Shown here: positions 8,222 through 40,760 of the stretch, one piece after another
Numbering within the stretch: position 1 is the stretch's first letter
Layout: every line of letters starts with the position of its first letter
Origin: Candidatus Altiarchaeota archaeon
GTDB lineage: Archaea > Altiarchaeota > Altiarchaeia > IMC4 > QMZM01
DNA: 43,856 nucleotides
NCBI GenBank assembly: GCA_018897475.1
Contig: JAHIKS010000093.1
Location: 1 to 43,856 of the forward strand
Direction of reading: 5' to 3'
Notes under the pieces: generated by a model
What the model was told of the DNA's origin: nothing
The model's input: the letters and a program-made list of their open reading frames with translations, nothing else
The model's database searches: none
Made by a program: the position numbers and the translations under genes

Positions 8222-8409
8222 AACAAACGTATCTGAAGAGGATTGCCAACGAGCTCCTTGAGAAATACAAGGTGGAATTCAGCAAGGACTTTCAGAAGAA
8301 CAAGGAGAAGGTACAAGAGCTAAGTACTGTAAAGAGCAAATCCATAAGAAACAAGATTGCAGGCTACATAACGAAGGTTATGAAGAGGGACGCGACAGAG
8401 GTAATCTAG
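8209..8409 (+). CDS. rps17e: 30S ribosomal protein S17e (eS17)
   Basis: 66-aa ORF 'MGRIKQTYLKRIANELLEKY...', the characteristic eS17 N-terminus (GRIRTK/IKR pattern), with typical size. Confidence 0.85.
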   Translation: MGRIKQTYLKRIANELLEKYKVEFSKDFQKNKEKVQELSTVKSKSIRNKIAGYITKVMKRDATEVI

Positions 8410-9197
8410 ATTTCATAACACCTCTCTTTGTAGCCGCAGGCCTCGCATTTCTTACCGGAGCCGTGGGGGCAGATTTCTGGGATTTTTCCCTGAAGGATTT
8501 CTATTATTGCATCCCTTGTATTGATTACCTCACGTCTCAGTTTCTCCGTCGTCATTACCGGCCGTCTCTCCTGGATTCTGGTGTATTCGACGAAGCCATA
8601 GGATATGGGTTCTTTAAGGCCGAATTTGTCCTCAAGGAGCATTGCATAGGCGCACGTCTGGAGGCGGTCGCCTTCCCACACGCCGTCTGACGGCTGGCCC
8701 GTCTTTATCTCTACCGGAACGTATGTCTCATCGAGCATTATCTTGTCGACTCTGCCAGTAATTCCAATGCTGTCTGACCTTATGTAGTACTCGACCTTCC
8801 AGGGAGTTACAAGCTGCAGAGCCTTTTCGATACCAATCTCCTCGACAATAATTCCCAACTTGGTGTTTATGGTTCCAATTTCAGAGAGCACTTCTGCCTT
8901 TATATCCGGAACAAGCGTCTCATAACTGGCGTCCTTCAGCATGTTCTTGTAGATGTGCGGGAAATCCTGCATGATTTGCTCCAATTCCTGTAGAAGGAGC
9001 GCCTCCAGCTCGTGCGGGTGCTGAATTTTCCCGAGAAGCTTCGCCTGCCTCATGCTGAGCTCCTTTCTCACGGCATGCCCAAGGAGGCCTTTGGTCTGCT
9101 CAAGGGTCGGCGCGGCCCTTATTTTCAATACTTTTGAAAAGTAGATGCTTCTGGGACAAAAGGTGTACTGATTCAAAGTAGAGGCATTGACATTCAT
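8406..9197 (-). CDS. Cas4-family (DUF83) PD-(D/E)xK exonuclease with 4-Cys cluster, stand-alone
   Basis: N-terminal Cys in 'YTFCPRSIYF'. Nuclease motif 'GRVDKI...VPVEIKTG' (D...ExK) and 'QTCAYAMLLE' (QxxxY). C-terminal Cys-rich tail 'CPHGSGKKCEACGYKERC', whose last three Cys form CX2CX5C. No CRISPR array or other cas genes are in the window. Confidence 0.75.
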   Translation of the reverse strand: MNVNASTLNQYTFCPRSIYFSKVLKIRAAPTLEQTKGLLGHAVRKELSMRQAKLLGKIQHPHELEALLLQELEQIMQDFPHIYKNMLKDASYETLVPDIKAEVLSEIGTINTKLGIIVEEIGIEKALQLVTPWKVEYYIRSDSIGITGRVDKIMLDETYVPVEIKTGQPSDGVWEGDRLQTCAYAMLLEDKFGLKEPISYGFVEYTRIQERRPVMTTEKLRREVINTRDAIIEILQGKIPEICPHGSGKKCEACGYKERCYEI

Positions 9198-9245
9198 CTT
9201 ACAGAACTGATATTCTTAGAAGTAAGATGAGATAAGGGATTAACC

Positions 9246-10891: not shown

Positions 10892-10950
10892 CGCCTTGTT
10901 CTGAAAATATTATACGCGAGGTTGCTGTTCACCATAGCGAATTTGTATTA

Positions 10951-11140
10951 TATAGCGGGGTTGAGCAGCCAGGAGTGCTCGTCGGACGTATAGAGGTGTT
11001 AAACATGCTCGTGCGGGCGAAGCTCATATGAGGGTTTAAACCAATCGTGAGAAAAAGCGCTTCTGAGAGACCCGAAGGTCCGAGGTTCAAAATAAGATAA
11101 GGTGAAAGCCATATTTTAGGAAAATCCTCGCCCCGCTATA
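10951..11140. other. ~190-bp element bounded by a perfect 10-bp inverted repeat (candidate structured ncRNA or MITE-like element)
   Basis: TATAGCGGGG (10951-10960) is the exact reverse complement of CCCCGCTATA (11131-11140). The interior looks GC-richer than the AT-rich flanks. An AT-rich TATA-like tract lies upstream (10904-10914) and a T5CT5 tract immediately downstream. Confidence 0.35.
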
Positions 11141-11151
11141 TTTTTCTTTTT
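11141..11151 (+). terminator. Oligo-T tract (TTTTTCTTTTT), archaeal terminator-like
   Basis: It directly follows the right arm of the inverted repeat. The same TTTTTCTTTT signal directly follows the bona fide tRNA-Arg at 27905-27914. Confidence 0.4.
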
Positions 11152-11241
11152 ATTTAACTGGATTTATGCTTGTTTCGCTTAGTTAAACCCGCTACTTTTT
11201 TATTATACCCGCTATTTATGGATTGAATAAGATATATAACT

Positions 11242-12021
11242 ATGAAGAATGGTGATTACACGCAAGAGGAAGATGTCATTATCACAAGAATGAGGTCAGA
11301 AGGGAATAAGAACCATGGGATCGCCCTAAGACTTGATAGAAGCCTGGATAGCATAAAGGGAAGGGCTCGATACCTGATAAAGAAGGGATTAATAAAATCA
11401 CGGGGTACAGCTAATGGTAGGTATCCGGAAGGTCGAAAATTGCGCAAATGGACAGATGAAGATATCAAGAAATTTAAGCAATTAAGAGGTTCTGGAAAAC
11501 CGTATGCAGAGATTGCTAAAGAACTTGGTAGAACGGTTGATGCCATACAGCAAACTGCTATTAGATTGATGAGGAAGGATGATACTCTATCCAGCCGAAA
11601 TACTCCAACGGATACAAAAATCTATAATCTTAACTCAGAGTTGGCCAAAATAGGCCTTATGTTGTGGTGGGCCGAAGGAACAAAGGGAGGACACAGTGTT
11701 CAGTTTGTTAATTCCTCTCCAGACATGATTAAAGTCTACATGCGTTTCTTGCGCGAGATTGGTGCAGATATCAGCAGATTGAGAGTAAGGATTAAGGTCA
11801 TGAACTCGTCGCAGGTTGAAGAATGTCAAGGGTACTGGTCAAAGGTAGCAAAAATACCAATAAATAACTTTACGAAACCAATAGTTCGAGGTAAAAAGAT
11901 AGATGATGCCTACAAAGAGCATAAGGGATGTCTCACCATAACATACTTCTCAAGCAATCTCAAGAGGCAGATGGAAGCGAAGATAGATGAGATTAAGGAG
12001 GAGATATTGAAACAAAGTTAG
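11242..12021 (+). CDS. Hypothetical protein: two Myb/SANT-like HTH repeats fused to a LAGLIDADG-like domain
   Basis: Two similar ~45-aa repeats: 'YTQEEDVIITRMRSEG.KNHGIALRLDRSLDSIKGRARYL' and 'WTDEDIKKFKQLRGSGKPYAEIAKELGRTVDAIQQTAIRL'. The C-terminal part, 'LAKIGLMLWWAEGTKGG.SVQFVNSSPDMIKVYMRFLREIG', resembles a single LAGLIDADG motif plus the following beta strands. Confidence 0.45.
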   Translation: MKNGDYTQEEDVIITRMRSEGNKNHGIALRLDRSLDSIKGRARYLIKKGLIKSRGTANGRYPEGRKLRKWTDEDIKKFKQLRGSGKPYAEIAKELGRTVDAIQQTAIRLMRKDDTLSSRNTPTDTKIYNLNSELAKIGLMLWWAEGTKGGHSVQFVNSSPDMIKVYMRFLREIGADISRLRVRIKVMNSSQVEECQGYWSKVAKIPINNFTKPIVRGKKIDDAYKEHKGCLTITYFSSNLKRQMEAKIDEIKEEILKQS

Positions 12022-12024
12022 ACA

Positions 12025-12819
12025 CTACAAAACCATCAAGCTAACCCCAAACCCCACAATCAGCCCCGCGCAGATTGGGGGCAATGCTGGAAGAGCGCAC
12101 TCCTTCTTGTTCAGGATGTAGACGAAGAGAAGAGCTATGCCGATTAATCCCCCGGCTGCTGTAATAATGGCGTTCGTGAAGGAGTAATCTCTCAGCACAG
12201 AGACCGAGAAGATGAGTGGAACTGCCAGGTCTCCTGTTCCAAGACCGAGGAACCTGTCGCCGAAAGGGATTGCGAACATCAGCGGTATTTTATCCTTTGC
12301 TCCCTCAGCCAGGGTTATCATGTGCTTCGTGCCGAATACAGCAACGAGGTCGTAGGCTGAGAGGATTAGGATGAGTATGAGAGCAGGAATGAATGCGATT
12401 GAGGACCCAAAGAGCGCCCCGATGCCCGGAATCGTGAAGATAAGGACTATGTTCATGACTGCCGGGTTCTTGCTCTTCCAGATTGAGAGGATAAAGAGAG
12501 CTGCCGCCAGAAGCAGGCCAATAACGCCGAATAGAAACCAGAGCGTGAAGGAAAGACCGATTAGCAGAAAAAAGAACGACATGATTCTTATGATAAAATA
12601 GAGCCCGAATTTCAGCAGCAGGAGAAGTATTCCTGTCCCGATGAGGATGTAGACGAAGATGGTCAATGAGGTGAGGGGGTTTTCTGGTTCCTCTACCACA
12701 GGGAGAATCTCCCCAGACTCTATCTTCTCTATCAGCTCGTGGCCTATCTGCAGGCCCATCAGCTGAATGGAAACATAAAGAAGGATTATCAGTATCAGAG
12801 GCTCGTATTTCATTCTCAT
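12025..12819 (-). CDS. Presenilin/signal-peptide-peptidase-family (A22) intramembrane aspartyl protease homologue
   Basis: Polytopic membrane ORF with the family triad in order: 'YD' (LSAYDLVAVF), 'GxGD' (GLGTGDLAVP) and 'PAL' (LPALPPI). Its ATG overlaps the mcm stop in an ATGA (12816-12819). Confidence 0.75.
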   Translation of the reverse strand: MRMKYEPLILIILLYVSIQLMGLQIGHELIEKIESGEILPVVEEPENPLTSLTIFVYILIGTGILLLLLKFGLYFIIRIMSFFFLLIGLSFTLWFLFGVIGLLLAAALFILSIWKSKNPAVMNIVLIFTIPGIGALFGSSIAFIPALILILILSAYDLVAVFGTKHMITLAEGAKDKIPLMFAIPFGDRFLGLGTGDLAVPLIFSVSVLRDYSFTNAIITAAGGLIGIALLFVYILNKKECALPALPPICAGLIVGFGVSLMVL

Positions 12820-22272: not shown

Positions 22273-22655
22273 TTCAGGTTCTCAACAAGAGCAGGGGTTT
22301 TGTCATAAGCGAATCCTGTGATGTAGCTGATTCTTTCTTCTCCAGGTTCAGGGGTCTGATGCTTTCAGGGCCGAAGGACTTGGTTCTTGTTTCCCCTAGA
22401 GAGGACATAAAGTCCTCGACGATTCACATGCTGTTTATGAGGTTTCCGATAGATGTGATTTGGGTGGATTCAGATATGGTTGTTATAGAAATTAAAAAAG
22501 GAATTAAACCCAACTCCCTTAAAATCTTCAAGCCAAAGAAGCCGGCTAAGTTTGTTGTAGAGCTGGGAATAGGAAAGTTAGGCACTACAGATGTTGGCGA
22601 TAGAATTGAGTTCTCACATCCCGACCCCGCCAAGCCGCTTCATCAGCCGCTTTAG
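22266..22655 (+). CDS. DUF192 (COG1430) family protein
   Basis: 129 aa. 'RFRGLM', 'MLFMRFPIDVIWVD' and 'VVELGIGK...GDRIEF' fit the DUF192 pattern. It contains an in-frame copy of the dispersed 12-nt motif (22577-22588). Its 3' end overlaps the srp54 3' end by 42 nt. Confidence 0.6.
   Translation: MVIQVLNKSRGFVISESCDVADSFFSRFRGLMLSGPKDLVLVSPREDIKSSTIHMLFMRFPIDVIWVDSDMVVIEIKKGIKPNSLKIFKPKKPAKFVVELGIGKLGTTDVGDRIEFSHPDPAKPLHQPL
22577..22588 (-). repeat. Intragenic copy of the dispersed motif (reads GTTAGGCACTAC on +)
   Basis: Exact 12/12. The coding frame is aag TTA GGC ACT ACa, giving K-L-G-T-T. With its flank (22572-22588) it is the exact reverse complement of 40749-40765 (17 nt). Confidence 0.9.
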
Positions 22656-27807: not shown

Positions 27808-27824
27808 TTATTCAATCATTAGTT

Positions 27825-27899
27825 GGGCCCGTAGCCTAGCCTGGATAGGGCACCGGACTTCTAATCCGGAGACCACGGGTTCGAATCCCGTCGGGTCCG
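27825..27899 (+). tRNA. tRNA-Arg (anticodon TCT)
   Basis: Hand-folded cloverleaf. Acceptor GGGCCCG/CGGGTCC (one G-U pair) plus discriminator G. Anticodon stem CCGGA/TCCGG with loop C-T-TCT-A-A. T arm ACGGG-TTCGAAT-CCCGT. 75 nt, no intron, CCA not encoded. Confidence 0.9.
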
Positions 27900-27904
27900 T
27901 TCGG

Positions 27905-28184: not shown

Positions 28185-28330
28185 ACTACTCCCACCAAAA
28201 ACCTACGGTTTTTGGAAGGAGCTTCCTGTTTCATTGACGAGACTTGCAGCAGAACCGAAGTCCTGAAGTAGAGGTTTCATCTCCGCAGGCGTTGGTTCGG
28301 GTCGCACCGACCCTACCTCTTTGAGAGCCT
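28150..28330 (-). ncRNA. Candidate omega-RNA (reRNA) scaffold of TnpB
   Basis: In characterised TnpB systems the guide RNA overlaps the tnpB 3' end and the right end of the element. Here that region carries three clean hairpins: GGGTCG-CAC-CGACCC (28299-28313), a 6-bp stem with a UUCG loop on the minus strand (28250-28265), and CCAAAAACC-TAC-GGTTTTTGG (28195-28215). Confidence 0.35.
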
Positions 28331-29393
28331 TATTCAATATGTTTATCGCAGCATTAGGGTCTCTGTCCATTACCAAGCCGCAATGCGGACACCTATGTTC
28401 TCTTACCCAAATTGGCTTGTAGACATATTTTCCACATTCTGGGTTGCTGCAGTTTTGTGTTGTGTTTTTTGGATCTACCTTCGCAAGCGTCCTACCAGCT
28501 CCCTCCGCCTTGTAGGACAGCATCTGAATGAAGGTTGACCATGAAGAGTCTGCTGTATTCTGGGCATTATAAGAGGATTCCATCATCTCCTTTACCGCCA
28601 GGTCCTCTACACCTATAATGTCGTAGTTATTTATGTAGTAGCGTGAAAGCTTGTGCAGGAAGTCCCTTCGCCCATCAGTTATTCTTTCATATACTCTCGC
28701 CGTCTTTATCCTCTGCTTCAGTCTGTTCTTTGAACCCTTCTCTTTCTTTGCCAGGTTTCTCTGCTCTCTGGCAAGTTTCTCTTCCAGTTTAAGAAGATTA
28801 TGAGGGTGTTCTATCCACTCCCCATTGCTGTCGGTCAGGTAGTTCTCTATGTTCAGGTCCAGTCCGATTGCTTTCCCTGTAGTGCCTAATTTTTCTGCTT
28901 TGGTTTCTACAGAAAAGATTGCGAACCACCTCCCTGATTGCTCTCTCTTGATGTGGACTTGCTTTATACTCCCCTTTATCTTCCTGTGCAGTTTTATCGG
29001 AATTGGTCCTATCTTAGACAAACGTAGTCTGTTGTCGATGATTGCGAAACCTGTCTGATTGTAGACAAAGGATTTCATCCGAGTGTATTTCTTGAACCTG
29101 AGTCTGCCGACCTTCCTTCCTTTTGCTTTCAATCCCCTGAGCCCCCGCAGGTTGGAATATAGTTGCCATAAAACATACTGCCTTGTTTTAGAGTGGCTGT
29201 TTTCCAACTCAGGCCACTGCCGGACAAGATAAGGTATCTGGGCCTGTAAATCATATTTTGGAGGAACTTTATCTGATTCCTTCCACTTTCTGAGGAAGTA
29301 GTTGTAGAGTTTCCTGCAACTATCAAGGACTTCCAGCATCCCCATCTCCTGGGCCTTGCTTGGATAGAGCCTAAACCTTAGATTTCTTTGCAT
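28203..29393 (-). CDS. tnpB: TnpB (IS200/IS605-family OrfB) RNA-guided nuclease-type transposon protein
   Basis: 396 aa. N-terminal 'LRFRLYPSKAQE'. RuvC-I 'AIGLDLN'. RuvC-II 'IIGVEDL'. Zinc finger 'CSNPECGKY...HRCPHCG'. RuvC-III 'DRDPNAAINI'. No tnpA (Y1 transposase) is adjacent. Confidence 0.9.
   Translation of the reverse strand: MQRNLRFRLYPSKAQEMGMLEVLDSCRKLYNYFLRKWKESDKVPPKYDLQAQIPYLVRQWPELENSHSKTRQYVLWQLYSNLRGLRGLKAKGRKVGRLRFKKYTRMKSFVYNQTGFAIIDNRLRLSKIGPIPIKLHRKIKGSIKQVHIKREQSGRWFAIFSVETKAEKLGTTGKAIGLDLNIENYLTDSNGEWIEHPHNLLKLEEKLAREQRNLAKKEKGSKNRLKQRIKTARVYERITDGRRDFLHKLSRYYINNYDIIGVEDLAVKEMMESSYNAQNTADSSWSTFIQMLSYKAEGAGRTLAKVDPKNTTQNCSNPECGKYVYKPIWVREHRCPHCGLVMDRDPNAAINILNKALKEVGSVRPEPTPAEMKPLLQDFGSAASLVNETGSSFQKP
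28879..28890 (+). repeat. Near copy (11/12, GTAGTGCCTAAT) of the dispersed motif inside tnpB, antisense
   Basis: On the coding (minus) strand it reads aaa TTA GGC ACT ACa, giving K-L-G-T-T. This is the same frame and codons as the two exact intragenic copies. Confidence 0.7.
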
Positions 29394-30051: not shown

Positions 30052-31221
30052 ATGGCAAAAGCGCCAGCAGATACGGTAAAATACAACATATACGCGGACA
30101 TTATCATAGACGGCGTGGTTGAGAAACCAGACGTTGTCGGAGCGATTTTCGGACAGTCCGAAGGCCTGCTCGGAGAAGAGCTTGAACTGAGAGACTTGCA
30201 GAAGACCGGGAGGATAGGTCGGATAGAGGTTGATGTTTCAACAAAGGCAGGAAAGTCGACAGGGAAGGTTACTGTGCCCTCCAGCCTGGATATGGTCGAG
30301 ACGTCAATTATCGCTGCTGCAATAGAGGGGGTCGATAGAGTGGGCCCCTGTAACGCGAAAATAACAGTAAAGGACGTTGAGGACGCACGAACCGCAAAGA
30401 GGAAGTCTGTAATTGATAGAGCAAAGGAGCTCCTGAAAAAGTTGATGGATGAGGAGATACCTGAAAGCGGTGCGCTGACTGAAGAGGTCAAGAAGGCGGT
30501 TCAGTTGAGTGAAATTGGTGATTATAGGGGGCTTCCTGCGGGGCCGGCGATAAGCGGTGCTGAGAGCATCATTCTTGTCGAGGGCAGAGCAGACGTGATA
30601 ACTCTGTTAAAGGCAGGGATAAAGAATGCCGTTGCTGTTGGCGGAACAAACATTCCAAAGACAGTTGTGGACCTAAGTAAGGAAAAAACGACCATTGCCT
30701 TTCTAGATGGTGACCGTGGCGGTGAAATGATATTGAAGGAGCTGTCACAGGTTGCGGAGATTGATTTTGTAGCTAGGGCGCCGAGGGGGAAAGAGGTGGA
30801 AGAGCTGGGTAAGAAAGAGATAATAATGGCTCTGAGAAGGAAGACCCCCCTAAGCCAGGTAAAGGGGAGCAATAATAGAGCACCCGAAAGGGGGAGCAAT
30901 AATAGAGCACCCGAAAGGGCCCAAGTAAAATCGAAAGACGATAAAGACAACGGGTTCCTGTCTCTTTTGGAGGACGTAAAGGGAAAATTAACCGCAAGGT
31001 TATATGACAACAACCTGACCCAGATTACGGAGATTGAGATTAAGGACCTTATAGACTCCCTTGGCGGGGTGCAGCCATATTGTGTCGTCTTTGATGGTAT
31101 TGTTACCCAAAGACTCATAGATGCTGCTGCATCAAGCAAGGTTACGTGTGTTGTAGGTATAAACAAGTCCTCAATCTCCAACACACGGGGAGTTCAGATT
31201 GTTACCGAGAGGGATAAATAA
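30052..31221 (+). CDS. dnaG: Archaeal DnaG primase-like protein (Toprim; exosome-associated)
   Basis: ORF track 30043..31221; ATG at 30052. Conserved archaeal DnaG N-terminus 'IIDGVVEKPDVVGAIFGQSEGLLG...LQKTGRIGRI'. Toprim motifs 'ILVEGRADVITL' and 'FLDGDRGG'. Confidence 0.9.
   Translation: MAKAPADTVKYNIYADIIIDGVVEKPDVVGAIFGQSEGLLGEELELRDLQKTGRIGRIEVDVSTKAGKSTGKVTVPSSLDMVETSIIAAAIEGVDRVGPCNAKITVKDVEDARTAKRKSVIDRAKELLKKLMDEEIPESGALTEEVKKAVQLSEIGDYRGLPAGPAISGAESIILVEGRADVITLLKAGIKNAVAVGGTNIPKTVVDLSKEKTTIAFLDGDRGGEMILKELSQVAEIDFVARAPRGKEVEELGKKEIIMALRRKTPLSQVKGSNNRAPERGSNNRAPERAQVKSKDDKDNGFLSLLEDVKGKLTARLYDNNLTQITEIEIKDLIDSLGGVQPYCVVFDGIVTQRLIDAAASSKVTCVVGINKSSISNTRGVQIVTERDK
30864..30917 (+). 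repeat. Perfect 27-bp tandem duplication inside dnaG
   Basis: GGGGAGCAATAATAGAGCACCCGAAAG occurs at 30864-30890 and again at 30891-30917. It is in frame and gives GSNNRAPER twice. Confidence 0.95.
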
Positions 31222-31280
31222 TCCCTCTTCTTTTTTTCTATTTTTATCCGTCTGAATCTAACTTAATAGTGGGTTCAAAC

Positions 31281-32744
31281 ATGCGCCTTGAGAGCATAGA
31301 TAGCACTAGAGACATTGAAATTGTAAGAGACCCAATGGCCAGGATTATTGGGCAGGGTGGTGCTATAGAGCGGGTCAAGGTTGCCATAAAACAGAGGAGA
31401 CATCTGCTTCTTGTTGGTCCCCCCGGAATCGGGAAGTCTATGGTTGCTCAGGCGATTGCCCTTTCACTTCCAGAGCCGGGGAAGGAGATTCGCGTTCTCC
31501 ATAACCCAGAGAACCCGGAGAGGCCGGTTCTTAAGGTTGTATCTCGGGAGGAGGTCGAAGAGAAAGAGGCGCCGCCGTCTGTTGATGACGGAGTCGTTAG
31601 CCCGCGGTCTGTTCCGTCCTTTGTTGCGGAGCGCCTTGGCTTCCGGTGCTTTGTTTGTGGGGCAATAAGCGGCGCACGGGAGCGGGCGTGTCCCTCCTGC
31701 GGGGCAAACAAATACAAGAAATTCGCATGGGACCAGCAGAGCTCGCCCCTAGGGGAGATAATAACTGAGGTCTTTGGGATTGGGGGGGAGGGCCCCGAAC
31801 TGGAGGTGAAGACAGTAACTACTGAGCCCTCTGGGGAGGAGCGTGTTGTGGTCTACCGCAGGATAGATGACGGGAGGATTGTGGTTCTGCAGAAGGGTGG
31901 TTTAGAGGAACCGGCTCAAGAAAAGGCCCCCCAGGCAATGAAGGTGTTAGTTCCACTTGGCAGGATCCCGTTCGTTCGCGCCACCGGCGCCTCAGAGACC
32001 GAGCTTTTGGGAGATGTAAGGCACGACCCGTATGGGGGCCACCCAGAGATTGGGGCTCCAGCATATCAGAGAGTTATTCCGGGTGCGATACATGATGCCC
32101 ATGAGGGCGTTCTCTTCATAGACGAGCTGCCCTCCATGGAACACCTACAAAGCTTCATCCTGACCGCGATGCAGGAAAAGAAGTTTCCAATTATTGGTAG
32201 AAACCCGCACTCCTCCGGGGCCTCAGTAAAGGTCGAGGACGTGCCCTGCGATTTTGTTTTTGTGGGTGCATGTAACACGCGGGAGCTTGCCGGGATGCTT
32301 CCGGCCCTGCGCTCCAGGATTGTTGGTTCGGGTTATGAGATTTTATTGGAAACAACAATGCCTGATTGTGAGGAGAACCAAATGGCGTTAATCAGGTTTA
32401 TTGCACAGGAAATTGAACTCGATGGTAAAATCCCCCACGCCAGTAGGGGGGCCGTTGAGGAGGCAATAAAGGTTGCTAGAAAGCGGGCACTAGAGATAGA
32501 CGGTGCGAGAAATTCCCTCACCCTTCGCCTTAGAGAGCTCGGGGGCCTGATACGGCTTGCGGGAGACATTGCCGTGTCTGAGGGCGCGGAATTTATAGAA
32601 GGAAAGCACGTTAAGAAGGGTATCAAGGAAACGCGGCCCATAGAACACCAGTTAAAGGACAAATACGGCTCTGTTTGGAAGGGGTTGGAGCGCGATAGTT
32701 ATATTGAGTCCACCCAAGACTCCCGGCTTGAGGGTTATGGGTGA
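31281..32744 (+). CDS. LonB-like AAA+ ATPase lacking the protease domain and the membrane insertion; Cys4 zinc-ribbon insert
   Basis: 'IIGQGGAIERVKVAIKQRRHLLLVGPPGIGKSM' (Walker A), 'GVLFIDELPSM' (Walker B) and 'LTAMQEKKFPIIGRNPHSSGASVKVEDVPCDFVFVGACN' align by eye with archaeal LonB. The insert between the Walker motifs has 'CFVCG...CPSCG' and no TM helices. The ORF ends where the LonB protease domain would begin. Confidence 0.75.
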   Translation: MRLESIDSTRDIEIVRDPMARIIGQGGAIERVKVAIKQRRHLLLVGPPGIGKSMVAQAIALSLPEPGKEIRVLHNPENPERPVLKVVSREEVEEKEAPPSVDDGVVSPRSVPSFVAERLGFRCFVCGAISGARERACPSCGANKYKKFAWDQQSSPLGEIITEVFGIGGEGPELEVKTVTTEPSGEERVVVYRRIDDGRIVVLQKGGLEEPAQEKAPQAMKVLVPLGRIPFVRATGASETELLGDVRHDPYGGHPEIGAPAYQRVIPGAIHDAHEGVLFIDELPSMEHLQSFILTAMQEKKFPIIGRNPHSSGASVKVEDVPCDFVFVGACNTRELAGMLPALRSRIVGSGYEILLETTMPDCEENQMALIRFIAQEIELDGKIPHASRGAVEEAIKVARKRALEIDGARNSLTLRLRELGGLIRLAGDIAVSEGAEFIEGKHVKKGIKETRPIEHQLKDKYGSVWKGLERDSYIESTQDSRLEGYG

Positions 32745-32790: not shown

Positions 32791-32935
32791 GTTAGGCACT
32801 ACAATGCATCAGTAAATTGTTGGACATTATGAGAACTAAGAGTAGAAGGAGTTAGGCACTACGCAGAAAGAGAAAATTATATAAAAACATAATAGATGGA
32901 GTGTTGTATGGAGGTATTAAATGGTTAGGCACTAC
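32791..32935 (-). repeat. Cluster of three copies of the dispersed 12-nt motif (GTTAGGCACTAC on +)
   Basis: Exact copies at 32791-32802, 32851-32862 and 32924-32935, in the AT-rich gap between the convergent lonB-like and ssb-like genes. Confidence 0.9.
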
Positions 32936-33344: not shown

Positions 33345-34121
33345 TTAAGTCCCCAATTGAATGGCGCTATTAATCTCCTTTAGAGTAGCAATGGTGGACA
33401 TGGCAGCAAGATAGCTTGTTTTTGGGTTGTTGGGAGATGGAAGGTTCTCCATTTTAATATTAAATTCCCCAAACATCCCAACAACACGAATCTCATGCAC
33501 ATTTCTATTTACATCGGGATCTGCAATTATTCTTAGTTTCGTTTTATCAAATCCCATACCTACCAAAGAGAGGGTGGCGGCAACATTGACGTTTTTTGGG
33601 AATTTTTTGATTCCTTCTCTTGCAGTGCCTTCATAGACTATGGTTTCTTTATCTGTCGTAGTGCCTAACTCTGCCGGGGGCTTCCTTGTTGTCAATTCAA
33701 CCGAGTCGATTCCTTTGGTCTTGGCCGCCTTTATTCCATCCAAACCCGCAATCGCTCCGGACGGAACGTAAATCCTGCGGCCGGTTTTATTAATGAGTTG
33801 CGTTAATTCGTTAAAGAGGGCCTCATCAGCGAGGGCACCAACACTCATTATAAGGATGTCCTTTCCAGAGTCCAGGACCTTAACCCCATAGTCCCTTACT
33901 GCGTCCTGCGACGCGGCCTCCACCACCAAATCTGTGTCTTGAAGCAGGCCTTCAATGGAATCTGCGACGTCTGGTTTCCTACGTAGTTGGGTGGCCAGTT
34001 CTCTGGCCCGTTCAATGTCCTGGTCAAAGACAGCAACCAGGCTGCAATCAACCTCCTCCCTATCAATTGCATCGGCCAGAATTCTGCCGATGTTCCCGCA
34101 CCCCAGGAGACCAATTCTCAT
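33345..34121 (-). CDS. nadX: L-aspartate dehydrogenase
   Basis: ORF track 33345..34169; the likely ATG at 34119-34121 gives 'MRIGLLGCGNIGR' (Rossmann GxGxxG). The C-terminal 'ENLPSPNNPKTSYLAAMSTIATLK' is typical of the family. It contains an antisense copy of the 12-nt motif. Confidence 0.8.
   Translation of the reverse strand: MRIGLLGCGNIGRILADAIDREEVDCSLVAVFDQDIERARELATQLRRKPDVADSIEGLLQDTDLVVEAASQDAVRDYGVKVLDSGKDILIMSVGALADEALFNELTQLINKTGRRIYVPSGAIAGLDGIKAAKTKGIDSVELTTRKPPAELGTTTDKETIVYEGTAREGIKKFPKNVNVAATLSLVGMGFDKTKLRIIADPDVNRNVHEIRVVGMFGEFNIKMENLPSPNNPKTSYLAAMSTIATLKEINSAIQLGT
33658..33669 (+). repeat. Intragenic copy of the dispersed motif (GTAGTGCCTAAC on +, antisense to nadX)
   Basis: Exact 12/12. 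The coding strand reads gag TTA GGC ACT ACg, giving E-L-G-T-T. Extended to 33658-33672 (GTAGTGCCTAACTCT) it is identical to 37072-37086. Confidence 0.9.
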
Positions 34122-36734: not shown

Positions 36735-37043
36735 ATGTTCTGTCTTGCGTACATAACCTGTGGAAACAGGGAGGAAGCGGAAAGGATTTCGGATGCTCTA
36801 GTTAAAGAGAAGCTCGCAGCGTGCGTAAATTTCTTTCCAATAAATTCCGTATTTGAATGGGGCGGGGAAATAAAACAGGAAAAGGAGTTCGCCCTGCTGT
36901 GCAAAACGATGGAGGACAAAATCCCCCACCTAAAGAAAAAGGTAAAGGAAATTCACAGCTACGAGATTCCTGCAATCCTCGTCATGGAAATAAAAGAGGG
37001 AAACGAGGAATTCCTTGGGTGGGTTGAGAAGTCTCTGGAATAA
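36735..37043 (+). CDS. cutA: Divalent-cation tolerance protein CutA
   Basis: 102 aa. 'AACVNFFPINSVFEWGGEI' and 'HSYEIPAI' match the CutA1 pattern. Confidence 0.8.
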   Translation: MFCLAYITCGNREEAERISDALVKEKLAACVNFFPINSVFEWGGEIKQEKEFALLCKTMEDKIPHLKKKVKEIHSYEIPAILVMEIKEGNEEFLGWVEKSLE

Positions 37044-37044
37044 T

Positions 37045-37182
37045 GTAGTGCCTAACCCTTGGTGCTGTTTTGTAGTGCCTAACTCTATGGGGGCGTAGTG
37101 CCTAACTTTCTAGAACCGCAGTGCCTAACTCTATTGTGCTGTGGCGTAGTGCCTAACTTACCCCCCAAACGTAGTGCCTAAC
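37045..37182 (+). repeat. Array of six spaced copies of the 12-nt motif GTAGTGCCTAAC
   Basis: Copies at 37045-37056, 37072-37083, 37095-37106, 37118-37129 (GCAGTGCCTAAC), 37146-37157 and 37171-37182. Spacers are 15, 11, 11, 16 and 13 nt. The array occupies the complete cutA/tsaC convergent gap. Confidence 0.95.
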
Positions 37183-37760
37183 TACTCCCTGAGAACCTTC
37201 CCGGAGCGCAAATCAATAACCTTCGACGGCTTCCCTATTCTACATGGCCCGGAGTCGATAACGAGGTCTACTGCATCCTTTATCTCGTCAGAAATCTCAT
37301 CCACGCTTGCCGGGGGCGCATTGCCCGAGACGTTCGCGGATGTTGTTATAATCGGGACTCCCACTTTCTCGACAAAACCCCCCACCACCGCGTGGTTGGG
37401 AATCCTCACCCCCACATCGTCCTTGCCAGCAGTGACGACATCGGGAATTCCCTCTTTTTTCTCTAGAATGAATGTGTATGGTTCATCAATATTATCAAGT
37501 ATGAATCTCCTCTCCTCGTCCCCGACAACCGCATACTCCTCAACCATCTCGATGCTGGAAAAGGCAACGGACAACGGCATGTCTCTACCCCTCTTCTTAA
37601 TATCAAAAATTCTCTCCACGTTGGGGGAATCTATGGAGCAACCGAGCCCATAGACGGTGTCTGTTGGGTATATAAGAACTCTGCCATCCCTCAAAAAATC
37701 CGCGGCGCATAGAATCTTATCCCCTTCAGGATTATCTGGAGAAATTCTTAGAATCTTCAT
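37182..37760 (-). CDS. tsaC: L-threonylcarbamoyladenylate synthase (YrdC/TsaC-type, Sua5 N-domain only)
   Basis: 192 aa. 'YPTDTVYGLGC', 'KKRGRDMPLSV' and 'TTSANVSG' are YrdC-domain hallmarks. Confidence 0.85.
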   Translation of the reverse strand: MKILRISPDNPEGDKILCAADFLRDGRVLIYPTDTVYGLGCSIDSPNVERIFDIKKRGRDMPLSVAFSSIEMVEEYAVVGDEERRFILDNIDEPYTFILEKKEGIPDVVTAGKDDVGVRIPNHAVVGGFVEKVGVPIITTSANVSGNAPPASVDEISDEIKDAVDLVIDSGPCRIGKPSKVIDLRSGKVLRE

Positions 37761-39492: not shown

Positions 39493-40752
39493 ATGTTTAT
39501 CGGTTTGGATGATACGGACTCCCTGAAGGGGGGATGCACTACATACTTAGCAGCGCTGCTATGCAGGGAGCTGGGCACTACAAAAAACCCGAAACTAATC
39601 CGGCTCAATCCGAACATCCCTTACAAGACAAGGGGCAACGGCGCAGTCGCAATTGAGGTGGATGGAAACCCCGCTAGAATAAAGGAAGTGGCCCTGAATC
39701 TGGTCAAGGAACACGCCCACACCAAGGACAAGAGAACAAACCCCGGCGTGGCATTCATTGATAATCTAAATTCAAAAAATAAAAAGAGCCTCAATGAATT
39801 CTACCAGAGAGCGGTCTCGGAACTCGTCACAATCGAGGAAGCCGAGGAGACCGCAGCCAAAACCAATGCAGAAATTCACAAATTCAACAACGGTAGAGGC
39901 ATCATCGGCGCGCTGGCAGCAATTGGTGCGGGTCTCGATGACAGGACCTATGAGCTAATTGCCTACAGGAAGAAGGAGAACTGTGGAAAGCCCAAAGGGA
40001 TAGATGAGGATTCTGTATTTGCGATGCACGAACGGCTCCACCCTCAGGTATTCAATTCCATAGACCCAGAGACAGGACAGATTCTCATAACCCCGCACGG
40101 CTACGACCCGGTCTTCTGCGGAATCAGGGGCGAGTCTCCGGAGGCAGTTCTGGAGGCATGGAAGTCCATAAAACCGCTGGAAGAGATAGAATTCATCCAA
40201 ATATTCGAGACAAACCAGGGGACCGACGCCCACCTCAGGGAGAATAAAATATCCGAGCTAAAGCCCTATGACTGTGCCATCCTGGAAGGCGCCGTTGCCA
40301 GCAACTCAAGAACAATCGAGGGCGGCCACGTTTTCTTTTCAATTGCTGACGGCACAGGAGAGATTGACTGCGCGGCCTACGAGCCAACAGGGAGATTCAG
40401 GGAGATAACAAGGAAACTATTAACTGGGGACAGAATTCGCGCCCACGGAGGAATTGGAAGATATATCAATACCCTAAACCTTGAAAAGATTGAAATTTTA
40501 GAATTGATTAAGGCACATAAAAAAGAATCTCCTGCCTGCTGCGGCCGGACTATGACATCAGCAGGAAAAGACAAGGGCTTCAAGTGCAGGAAGTGCGGCA
40601 AGAGAAAGGATTCGAACTCTGCAGTAATCCAGGAAATTCCCAGAGGGCTGAAAGACGGATTTTATGAGGCGCCCCCAAGGGCGATGAGGCACCTGAGCAA
40701 GCCGATAATAAGGGCGCAGCAGCGAATTTCAACAGACAAAACCGATATGTAG
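39493..40752 (+). CDS. tiaS: tRNA(Ile2) 2-agmatinylcytidine synthetase TiaS
   Basis: 'MFIGLDDTDSLKGGCTTYLAA' and 'LIRLNPNIPYKTRGNGAVAI' form the TiaS N-terminal hallmark. C-terminal OB region and zinc ribbon 'CCGRTMTSAGKDKGFKCRKCG'. Confidence 0.85.
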   Translation: MFIGLDDTDSLKGGCTTYLAALLCRELGTTKNPKLIRLNPNIPYKTRGNGAVAIEVDGNPARIKEVALNLVKEHAHTKDKRTNPGVAFIDNLNSKNKKSLNEFYQRAVSELVTIEEAEETAAKTNAEIHKFNNGRGIIGALAAIGAGLDDRTYELIAYRKKENCGKPKGIDEDSVFAMHERLHPQVFNSIDPETGQILITPHGYDPVFCGIRGESPEAVLEAWKSIKPLEEIEFIQIFETNQGTDAHLRENKISELKPYDCAILEGAVASNSRTIEGGHVFFSIADGTGEIDCAAYEPTGRFREITRKLLTGDRIRAHGGIGRYINTLNLEKIEILELIKAHKKESPACCGRTMTSAGKDKGFKCRKCGKRKDSNSAVIQEIPRGLKDGFYEAPPRAMRHLSKPIIRAQQRISTDKTDM

Positions 40753-40760
40753 TGCCTAAC
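40749..40760 (+). repeat. Solitary copy of the 12-nt motif overlapping the tiaS stop codon
   Basis: GTAGTGCCTAAC exact. Its internal TAG (40750-40752) is the tiaS stop codon. Confidence 0.9.

Follow-up and report, generated by a model that had tools for sequence, protein, structure and literature searches.

An exact 12-base word, repeated head to tail in an Altiarchaeota intergenic gap, belongs to a previously undescribed family found in several archaeal phyla

Why should the gap between two converging genes consist of copies of one short word and the spacers between them? The question is raised by the window analyzed here, a stretch of 43,856 nucleotides (nt) from a Candidatus Altiarchaeota archaeon (assembly GCA_018897475.1, contig JAHIKS010000093.1, positions 1 to 43,856 of the forward strand), in which the 12-mer GTAGTGCCTAAC and a close variant are arrayed between the cutA and tsaC genes. 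The features concerned are:

37045..37182, + strand: six head-to-tail copies that fill the whole convergent cutA/tsaC gap
36735..37043, + strand: cutA (CutA1), whose TAA ends 1 nt (a T) before the first copy
37182..37760, − strand: tsaC (Sua5-YrdC), whose stop codon takes only the last C of the sixth copy

Five copies are exact (starts 37045, 37072, 37095, 37146 and 37171) and the one starting at 37118 is the variant GCAGTGCCTAAC, all on the + strand. The start-to-start spacings of 27/23/23/28/25 nt leave spacers of 15/11/11/16/13 nt, the first and fourth of which share the heptamer GTGCTGT. Our recount, together with the open reading frame (ORF) ends at 37043 and 37182, agrees in each of these respects with a preliminary description made from the letters alone: the copy positions, the variant, the spacings and spacer lengths, the start 1 nt past the cutA TAA and the end on a tsaC stop base, and the heptamer ahead of copies 2 and 5. 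We likewise counted 11 exact copies in the window against 0.005 expected (2 × 43,856/4^12), each with a pyrimidine on both sides, as had been reported. With up to two mismatches allowed, there are 16 matches compared to 1.3 in dinucleotide shuffles, and none of 100 shuffles reached 16. Per unit length, the non-coding sequence of the window holds about 40 times as many copies as its coding sequence. The array is base-for-base the same in four independent assemblies (one metagenome-assembled genome (MAG) from NCBI and three Logan SRA runs) and is, thus, not an assembly artefact, a possibility the preliminary description had raised; contigs of a MAG that bears the name Candidatus Altiarchaeales archaeon match the window as well. 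The motif lacks self-complementarity and forms no hairpin: relative to shuffles, the array folds with z = −2.1 on the + strand, by way of G–U pairs between motif and spacer, and z = −0.4 on the − strand. This bears out the earlier view that the motif is not a hairpin, and its dismissal of CRISPR, repetitive extragenic palindrome (REP) and T-rich terminator identities also stands.

How far does the word reach beyond this gap? A scan for pairs of exact copies 8–36 nt apart, with each GTDB species represented by one genome, recovered 42 loci from about 25 MAGs, labelled as Altiarchaeota, Micrarchaeota, Iainarchaeota, Woesearchaeota, ‘Methanosarcinales’ and unclassified archaea, with two contigs labelled bacterial. 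The same scan of metagenomes from the Joint Genome Institute (JGI) gave 116 further loci, and that of viral contigs gave zero arrays. Once near-identical loci had been merged and three satellites removed, about 170 non-redundant sites were left, on host contigs ranging from 26 to 65% in G+C. Their full consensus is wwT-GTAGTGCCTAAC-TTTT, or more finely w-w-T-GTAGTGCCTAAC-T-T/C-T-T, with a T at −1 in 87% and at +1 in 79% of the sites. More than 90% of the copies near arrays are exact, positions 12 and 3 being the most variable, and further isolated copies are found throughout the fetched loci. In either orientation, as DNA or RNA, GTAGTGCCTAAC appears in no paper of the searchable literature library. 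Only tRNAs reach the Rfam gathering score in the window and seven loci, and a permissive Rfam scan of 32.6–37.4 kb gave two sub-threshold matches, neither inside an array; the earlier remark that no described archaeal element of such form is known holds. We conclude that the array belongs to a family of loci, not described before, that carry an exact word of 12–14 bases and are spread over several archaeal phyla. The preliminary description, by treating it as the property of one gap or genome, was too narrow, for the word is genome-wide.

The removed satellites (L138, about 2 kb; L087; L135), all on metagenome contigs, are long runs of 29-nt, 15-nt and 29-nt units, respectively, that hold the 12-mer within 3′ flanks departing from the consensus; they are probably unrelated to the word family and perhaps eukaryotic. 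Of the two bacterial matches, the one from Aeromicrobium (L017) has atypical flanks and looks like a chance 12-mer within a local duplication. The other, from a Leptolyngbyaceae culture contig with a coverage of 473 (L048, 6243–6290), has two copies whose flanks fit the consensus, with T ahead of the word and TTT behind it; the contig also has a gene for a cyanobacterial-type Uma2 nuclease, and these copies might stem from chance, contamination or horizontal transfer.

To describe the placement of the sites, we denote by m the word GTAGTGCCTAAC in the sense of the flanking genes and by R its reverse complement GTTAGGCACTAC in that sense. The sites are distributed as follows:

Convergent gaps: 34 sites, against 173 background gaps
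Tandem gaps: 47 sites, against 541 background gaps
Divergent gaps: 11 sites, against 163 background gaps
Inside ORFs: 36 sites, background not applicable

Thus, the sites are enriched in convergent gaps, and they are found near stop codons. In the tandem gaps, 25 are in R-sense and 22 in m-sense, and in both classes the median distance to the upstream stop is about 23 nt, which leaves the downstream promoter region free. This random orientation with respect to the flanking genes argues against a role in RNA or in the 3′ untranslated region (UTR). Within arrays, by contrast, direction is almost invariant: the copies run head to tail, with an opposite pair in only 1 of about 250 neighbouring pairs (within 120 nt). 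Array spacings peak at 22–25, 33–34 and 44–45 bp, with a minimum of 14 nt (m plus TT), and a Fourier scan gave a best period of about 10.5 bp. Of 43 pairs of distinct sites that are next neighbours, most of them no more than 5 kb apart, 29 are co-oriented and 14 opposed. That opposed fraction led us to reject a replication-polar word of the kind represented by Chi, KOPS or architecture-imparting sequences, in which orientation tracks replication and changes only at the origin and terminus.

Orthologous sites bear signs of selection on the copies. In ten low-G+C contigs, the promoter of a class-II aminoacyl-tRNA synthetase (aaRS) gene has the form m-(10–21 nt)-m-AAAACA-TTTAWATA-7 nt-m-TT-ATG, so that one copy abuts the BRE (transcription factor B recognition element)/TATA box and another is placed between TATA box and start codon. 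These spacings suggest a leaderless aaRS mRNA. The aaRS proteins behind this promoter are only 35–41% identical between subgroups, and over such a distance neutral intergenic sequence would have been randomised; the retention of the copies at the promoter, thus, indicates selection. Likewise, copies stand just past the aspartate dehydrogenase stop codon in five genomes, all in R-sense, where the enzymes, as far as compared, have 44–56% identity to that of the window. The peaks in site position 2 and 35 nt ahead of start codons are due entirely to the one orthologous aaRS locus, outside which the motif has no TATA association, and a general promoter element was accordingly discarded. A link to tRNA genes or integration sites was dropped too, since only 11 of 168 sites are near a tRNA and 8 of these 11 are the same aaRS locus.

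We then examined relatives within Altiarchaeales that were sampled by tsaC similarity alone, so that the motif had no influence on the choice of loci. Listed by the identity of their TsaC to that of the window, they hold:

81%: 9 exact copies in a 16.3 kb locus
62%: 1 exact copy in 20.6 kb
60%: 6 exact copies in 18.8 kb
59%: 2 exact copies in 20.6 kb
56%: 0 copies in 20.6 kb
53%: 0 copies in 20.6 kb
48%: 0 copies in 20.5 kb
43%: 0 copies in 20.6 kb

Two further loci, fetched through homologues of a tandem helix-turn-helix (HTH) protein discussed below, have zero copies (L167, 20.8 kb, tsaC 45% identical; L169, 12 kb). The two low-density loci show relics with one or two mismatches where their relatives hold exact copies. 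The word is, thus, confined to one clade within one order and is decaying in parts of it, yet is present in other phyla, a pattern that points either to horizontal spread of a maintaining factor or to loss on several occasions. In L176, a relative without the motif, CTACTACCTAAC is present in exact form at 9199, 11068 and 20435 (−); it agrees with the motif in 9 of its 12 bases and is absent from the other 177 loci. Two of the three are in genes (GatD and nadC), and this sequence may be a dialect of the word.

The arrays themselves turn over rapidly. In the syntenic cutA/tsaC or nadC/tsaC gap, against six copies in the window, there are three in L171 (tsaC 81% identical) and two in L016 (67%), and L038 (80%) has three exact and two decayed copies with spacers that are shuffled and still recognisably homologous; syntenic arrays in relatives, a check put forward in the preliminary description, are accordingly found at three loci. 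Beyond such gains and losses, motif-bounded units recur as genome-specific modules. First, Altiarchaeota CSMAG_1619 repeats intergenic modules rich in hairpins, with units of about 190 and 240 nt, at several loci:

L043 461–651 and 2366–2608
L036 6769–6907
L044 1–177
L030 182–343

They contain several different short hairpins of the form AAAA-N4-loop-N4-TTTT with the 12-mer on both sides. One module type opens with a perfect TATA box (TTTTTATAAAG) 15 nt past the motif and may be a small transcribed unit. Second, Iainarchaeum UBA10036 has a 44–45-nt unit that is intergenic and also in frame inside two genes: its Dph2 has an in-frame insertion of about 50 residues relative to solved Dph2 structures, with three copies within, and in its PLP-dependent decarboxylase the 45-nt unit is duplicated in frame. 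Third, a Micrarchaeota-like population has a 37-nt doublet, m-TTACGAGGGAAAT-m, at at least 15 unrelated loci, with the 13-nt spacer in either orientation. This doublet (L111, L125, L139/L032, L149, L151) is often followed by T-runs and a conserved hairpin with a 9-bp stem, GAACCTTTT...AAAAGGTTC, an arrangement that resembles a terminator working in both directions. At L035 (1323–1400), at least four units of GTAGTGCCTAACTCTTGTAGTCGT form a perfect tandem array with a 24-nt period that runs into an N stretch or assembly gap; tandem arrays of this kind can collapse or break assemblies. Not every copy in a gene is an insertion. The 36 in-gene sites read in the LGTT, VRHY or VVPN frames, and some are conversions of existing codons, as in the I-G-L-G-T-T that overlies the conserved I-x-L-x-T-T of Dph2.

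The remaining copies in the window illustrate the same range of settings:

32791..32935, − strand: second array, made up of three exact copies, at 32791, 32851 and 32924, and filling the convergent gap that separates a LonB-like AAA+ gene from an SSB-like OB-fold gene
33658..33669, + strand: exact copy in a variable loop of the aspartate dehydrogenase gene, coding strand G TTA GGC ACT AC (LGTT)
22577..22588, − strand: exact copy within the 3′-terminal part of DUF192, read as LGTT, 26 nt past the stop of the convergent overlapping SRP54 gene
40749..40760, + strand: exact copy whose own TAG is the TiaS stop codon, 12 nt upstream of the TATA-like TATTTAAT before nrdD
12017..12028, − strand: one-mismatch copy GTAGTGTCTAAC, which gives the stops of both convergent genes, 11242..12021 (+) and 12025..12819 (−)
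28879..28890, + strand: one-mismatch copy GTAGTGCCTAAT in the tnpB (IS605 OrfB) gene, LGTT frame as worked out from the coordinates

Arrays syntenic with the second one are found in L038, L043 and L171, the copy in aspartate dehydrogenase is also present in L038 and L171, and the TiaS/nrdD gap of L171 holds two copies. All three in-gene copies (DUF192, aspartate dehydrogenase, tnpB) have the same coding strand, G TTA GGC ACT AC, read as LGTT; that in the variable loop of aspartate dehydrogenase is, like the Dph2 case, a conversion and not an insertion. DUF192 and SRP54 converge and share 42 nt at their 3′ ends (22614–22655). The TnpB/IS605 OrfB gene (28203–29393, −), with a Cas12f-like TNB domain, lacks a tnpA and adjoins tRNA-Arg(TCT) (27824–27900, +); a link of the word to this element was rejected, as the only copy is the degenerate one in tnpB, with none at the element ends.

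Both the GC skew and the AT skew baselines shift near 33 kb (about 31–35 kb), where the motif copies switch strand. DnaG-like Toprim, LonB-like AAA+ and SSB-like OB-fold genes are clustered at the same place, and the region could be a replication origin or terminus; given the 14 opposed of 43 neighbouring sites, the strand switch at the skew change is probably coincidental. The Toprim gene holds a near-perfect (96%) 27-nt tandem duplication (30861–30914) that would add nine in-frame residues. The AAA+ protein (31269–32744, +; 491 aa), whose gene keeps its place beside Toprim in several loci of Altiarchaeales, aligns with the LonB ATPase region (positions 170–403 of the 608 in profile TIGR00764) with 357 bits, under the cut-off of 516.6 bits, and the protease part of the profile is unmatched. 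A Cas4/Csa1-like PD-(D/E)XK nuclease gene (8406–9197, −) lies 28 kb from the cutA/tsaC array, and the window contains no CRISPR array or other cas genes.

What, then, maintains the word? Our tentative preference, held at somewhat less than even confidence, is that it is the DNA recognition site of a putative sequence-specific protein and serves as a gene-boundary or operator element. An exact core across a 40-point span in G+C and several phyla, the fixed flanks, the head-to-tail geometry and the promoter architecture point to a reader of double-stranded DNA. We infer that such a protein exists and that a boundary or roadblock function follows from its binding. T-GTAGTGCCTAAC-T with its T-rich 3′ flank would be read by one protomer per copy, bound head to tail, and the many sites of one reader would freeze the word. 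Sites would be tolerated or selected mainly just past stop codons and between convergent genes, where a bound array would act as a roadblock, insulator or termination aid, and at a few promoters the same word may serve as an operator flanking the BRE/TATA box. Arrays would grow and shrink through duplication or loss of motif-plus-spacer units and through the copying of units between sites. Of what the preliminary description offered, an array of sites for a DNA-binding protein remains the best reading, whereas a plasmid-type iteron array or a single centromere is ruled out by the many sites per genome among housekeeping genes, in genes and at a conserved promoter.

Comparisons with well-known systems give this proposal some context. 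Roadblock and general regulatory sites, such as the mouse TTF-I Sal-box sites T1–T10 and those of yeast Reb1 and mTERF/DmTTF, resemble the word in being short, asymmetric and repeated, in lying downstream of genes or at the junctions of convergent blocks and also by promoters, and in having an adjacent T-rich tract. They differ in being eukaryotic or organellar with known Myb-like or mTERF proteins; the binding protein of the present family is putative. Iterons and centromeres (R1 parC with ParR, the omega-repressor heptads) and Cbp1 on CRISPR repeats share the head-to-tail arrangement, the roughly helical spacing, arrays that flank a core promoter and, as would be predicted here, one protomer per repeat. 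Unlike these systems, the present sites are chromosomal, dispersed at roughly one per 4–20 kb and untied to partition, replication or cas genes. We would regard the sites of Reb1, TTF-I and mitochondrial mTERF as the probable closest functional analogues and ParR/parC iterons and Cbp1 as the closest geometric ones.

A search for genes that accompany the word bears on this proposal. Two rounds of clustering and Pfam scans of the array-flanking genes revealed housekeeping functions, with no enrichment of transposases, recombinases or cas genes. The only families that recur beside arrays are syntenic housekeeping ones: aspartate dehydrogenase, SerB, an SSB-like OB fold, a PRC barrel, TFE-alpha/Trm56 and aaRS. 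Among 89 array-flanking ORFs and the recurrent clusters, flanking genes being what this survey covered, there is no Y1 transposase. The one candidate reader tested was the tandem-HTH protein of the window (11242..12021, +), a protein of 259 aa that combines a pair of HTH repeats with a strongly conserved alpha/beta domain at the C terminus and whose model has the CRISPR-repeat-binding protein Cbp1 (2lvs) as its best Foldseek match. A profile search recovered 4097 relatives. Because homologues occur in motif-free contigs and the gene travels with a different repeat, ATAGCGGGG, the candidate was dropped. Four ATAGCGGGG copies stand upstream of the gene in the window (10950–11218), the homologue in L167 (9714–10793) is bracketed by a perfect 17-bp inverted repeat, AATAGCGGGGGTGGGAT, and those in L169 and L170 are beside an IS110 transposase; gene and repeats together look like a small mobile or autoregulated unit.

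Several observations weigh against the proposed protein-binding site. First, the search yielded no cognate protein, one candidate having been tested. Second, two copies in L038 have decayed, L172 and L173 hold only relics and sister Altiarchaeales have no motif altogether, so that single copies and even the whole system are dispensable. Third, the genome-specific motif-bounded modules recur at many unrelated loci and look mobile. Fourth, in-frame arrays in housekeeping genes (Dph2 and the decarboxylase) are awkward for a roadblock. Finally, the spacing periodicity of about 10.5 bp is suggestive only, because lineages have their own preferred, non-independent unit lengths.

The apparent mobility of the modules lends weight to the rival that survives best, though we consider it rather doubtful: a selfish short dispersed repeat of the REP/BIME (bacterial interspersed mosaic element), MITE (miniature inverted-repeat transposable element) or RPE (Rickettsia palindromic element) type, whose motif-bounded units are copied or inserted by an enzyme encoded elsewhere and pile up where they do least harm, any host function being secondary. 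Besides the modules of CSMAG_1619, Iainarchaeum and the Micrarchaeota-like doublet, this would account for the gain, loss and degradation of units between close relatives, for the permissive sites just after stop codons and for a patchy distribution in which the word is present down to a TsaC identity of 59%, missing from six more remote loci of Altiarchaeales and found again in other phyla. In-frame insertions within genes are a feature of the Rickettsia RPE and the M. jannaschii MJRE, and the sites share with these and with REP/BIME their mosaic clusters, rapid gain and loss and occasional in-frame entry into genes. REP/BIME are, likewise, short extragenic repeats clustered after genes or between convergent ones. 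GTAG at the 5′ end is a defining feature of REPs and also begins the motif, a likeness that we treat as a lead only. Against these stands the lack of a palindrome or hairpin, terminal inverted repeat or other transposon architecture in or around most copies. The repeats are direct instead of alternating, and the units are bounded by direct copies and not by the inverted ones of a MITE. No transposase or Y1/RAYT-type gene (for the transposase that accompanies REPs) is enriched beside arrays, the latter as judged from flanking genes. Further, only 12–14 nt are common to the genomes, identical across phyla and from 26 to 65% G+C, whereas REPs and MITEs are normally species-specific, and promoter copies have been kept across protein identities of 35–41%.

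Less probable still, and in our judgement unlikely, is a DNA uptake or self-recognition word like the DNA uptake sequence (DUS) of Neisseria or the uptake signal sequence (USS) of Pasteurellaceae, which would accumulate through biased uptake or recombination because a receptor or nuclease-control protein prefers word-bearing DNA. There are points of likeness: DUS and USS are exact, non-palindromic words of 9–12 nt with preferred flanking bases, over-represented a hundred- to thousand-fold, without bias in gene orientation, enriched at gene 3′ ends and found in permissive frames within genes. Like them, the present word enters genes at variable loops or by conversion of an existing L-x-T-T, is common to several taxa and may have a dialect in CTACTACCTAAC, with its three copies at a locus from sister Altiarchaeales. 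DUS/USS, however, do not form close head-to-tail arrays, which here reach six copies, or composite modules peculiar to one genome, and the inverted pairs typical of DUS terminators are nearly absent. The hosts are archaea of several phyla in which competence machinery is neither known nor seen, and the constant placement of copies about one promoter suggests a local role. We know of no precedent for a single uptake word common to several phyla.

An element acting in RNA, namely a multi-copy protein or small-RNA site or a sponge in 3′ UTRs, had been suggested for the cutA 3′ UTR and is very improbable. Copies right after stop codons, the slightly better folding of the array + strand than of its shuffles and the T/U-runs that follow the motif in 32% of the sites might speak for it. 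But sites lie near the upstream stop whichever their sense, and orientation independence, copies upstream of transcription starts at the aaRS promoter and the lack of an Rfam match or structural signal make an RNA role unlikely. Pairing with rRNA gave nothing beyond three-mismatch chance matches in the E. coli rrnH operon, the one operon tested, which weakens such pairing without excluding it for archaeal rRNA.

A proto-CRISPR-like origin, in which a Cas1- or casposase-type integrase inserts short DNA at a 12–14-bp target that is duplicated each time, is scarcely credible: the direct repeats in one orientation with variable and mostly unrelated spacers, the 13-nt spacer of the Micrarchaeota-like doublet in both orientations between direct repeats and the 14–15-bp target duplications of casposons recall it, but there are about 170 sites with mostly 2–3 copies each, spacers go down to 2–6 nt and recur at many loci, no Cas1 or casposase gene lies near any array and viral contigs have none of the arrays. 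CRISPR proper differs further in its repeats (about 23–55 nt, against 12 nt or 14 with flanks) and spacers (about 21–72 nt, against 2–33 nt), and the present arrays have no adjacent cas genes or leader, mostly 2–6 copies per site and many sites per genome.

Two resemblances to known sequences were also set aside. Integron attC sites, in which an inverse core (RYYYAAC) and a core (GTTRRRY) stand in inverted orientation 50–140 bp apart and bound gene cassettes, were considered since the motif holds GCCTAAC/GTTAGGC, but its copies are direct, the spacers lack ORFs or cassettes and the taxa differ, archaeal integrons being ‘particularly enriched among Asgard archaea’ (PMC9668308). The archaeal HSR1/Phr operator, a palindromic half-site pair that overlaps a promoter and reads CTAAC-N5-GTTAG (PMC9133787), shares only the 5-nt half-site CTAAC, and inverted pairs are essentially absent here.

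As we see them, the boundary, selfish and uptake readings need not exclude one another; REPs are both mobile and co-opted. A fuller picture, in which one protein and hundreds of exact 14-bp words have spread horizontally among co-habiting subsurface archaea (Altiarchaeota and DPANN) and punctuate their gene boundaries, is possible, and we regard it as more doubtful than the recognition site itself. If true, the DUS/REP/Reb1 class would gain its first counterpart in archaea, one whose arrays grow as minisatellites do and can even invade coding sequences. A 12-mer that stays letter-perfect from 26 to 65% G+C and across several phyla implies strong constraint, the source of which would be a protein that reads it or possibly an RNA. 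Identification of the reader would provide a handle on gene-boundary marking, transcription termination or insulation, and DNA recognition or exchange in the compact genomes of uncultivated Altiarchaeota and DPANN archaea. The word itself could be used as a marker for binning, for tracing horizontal exchange between hosts and episymbionts and for flagging arrays that collapse in assembly.

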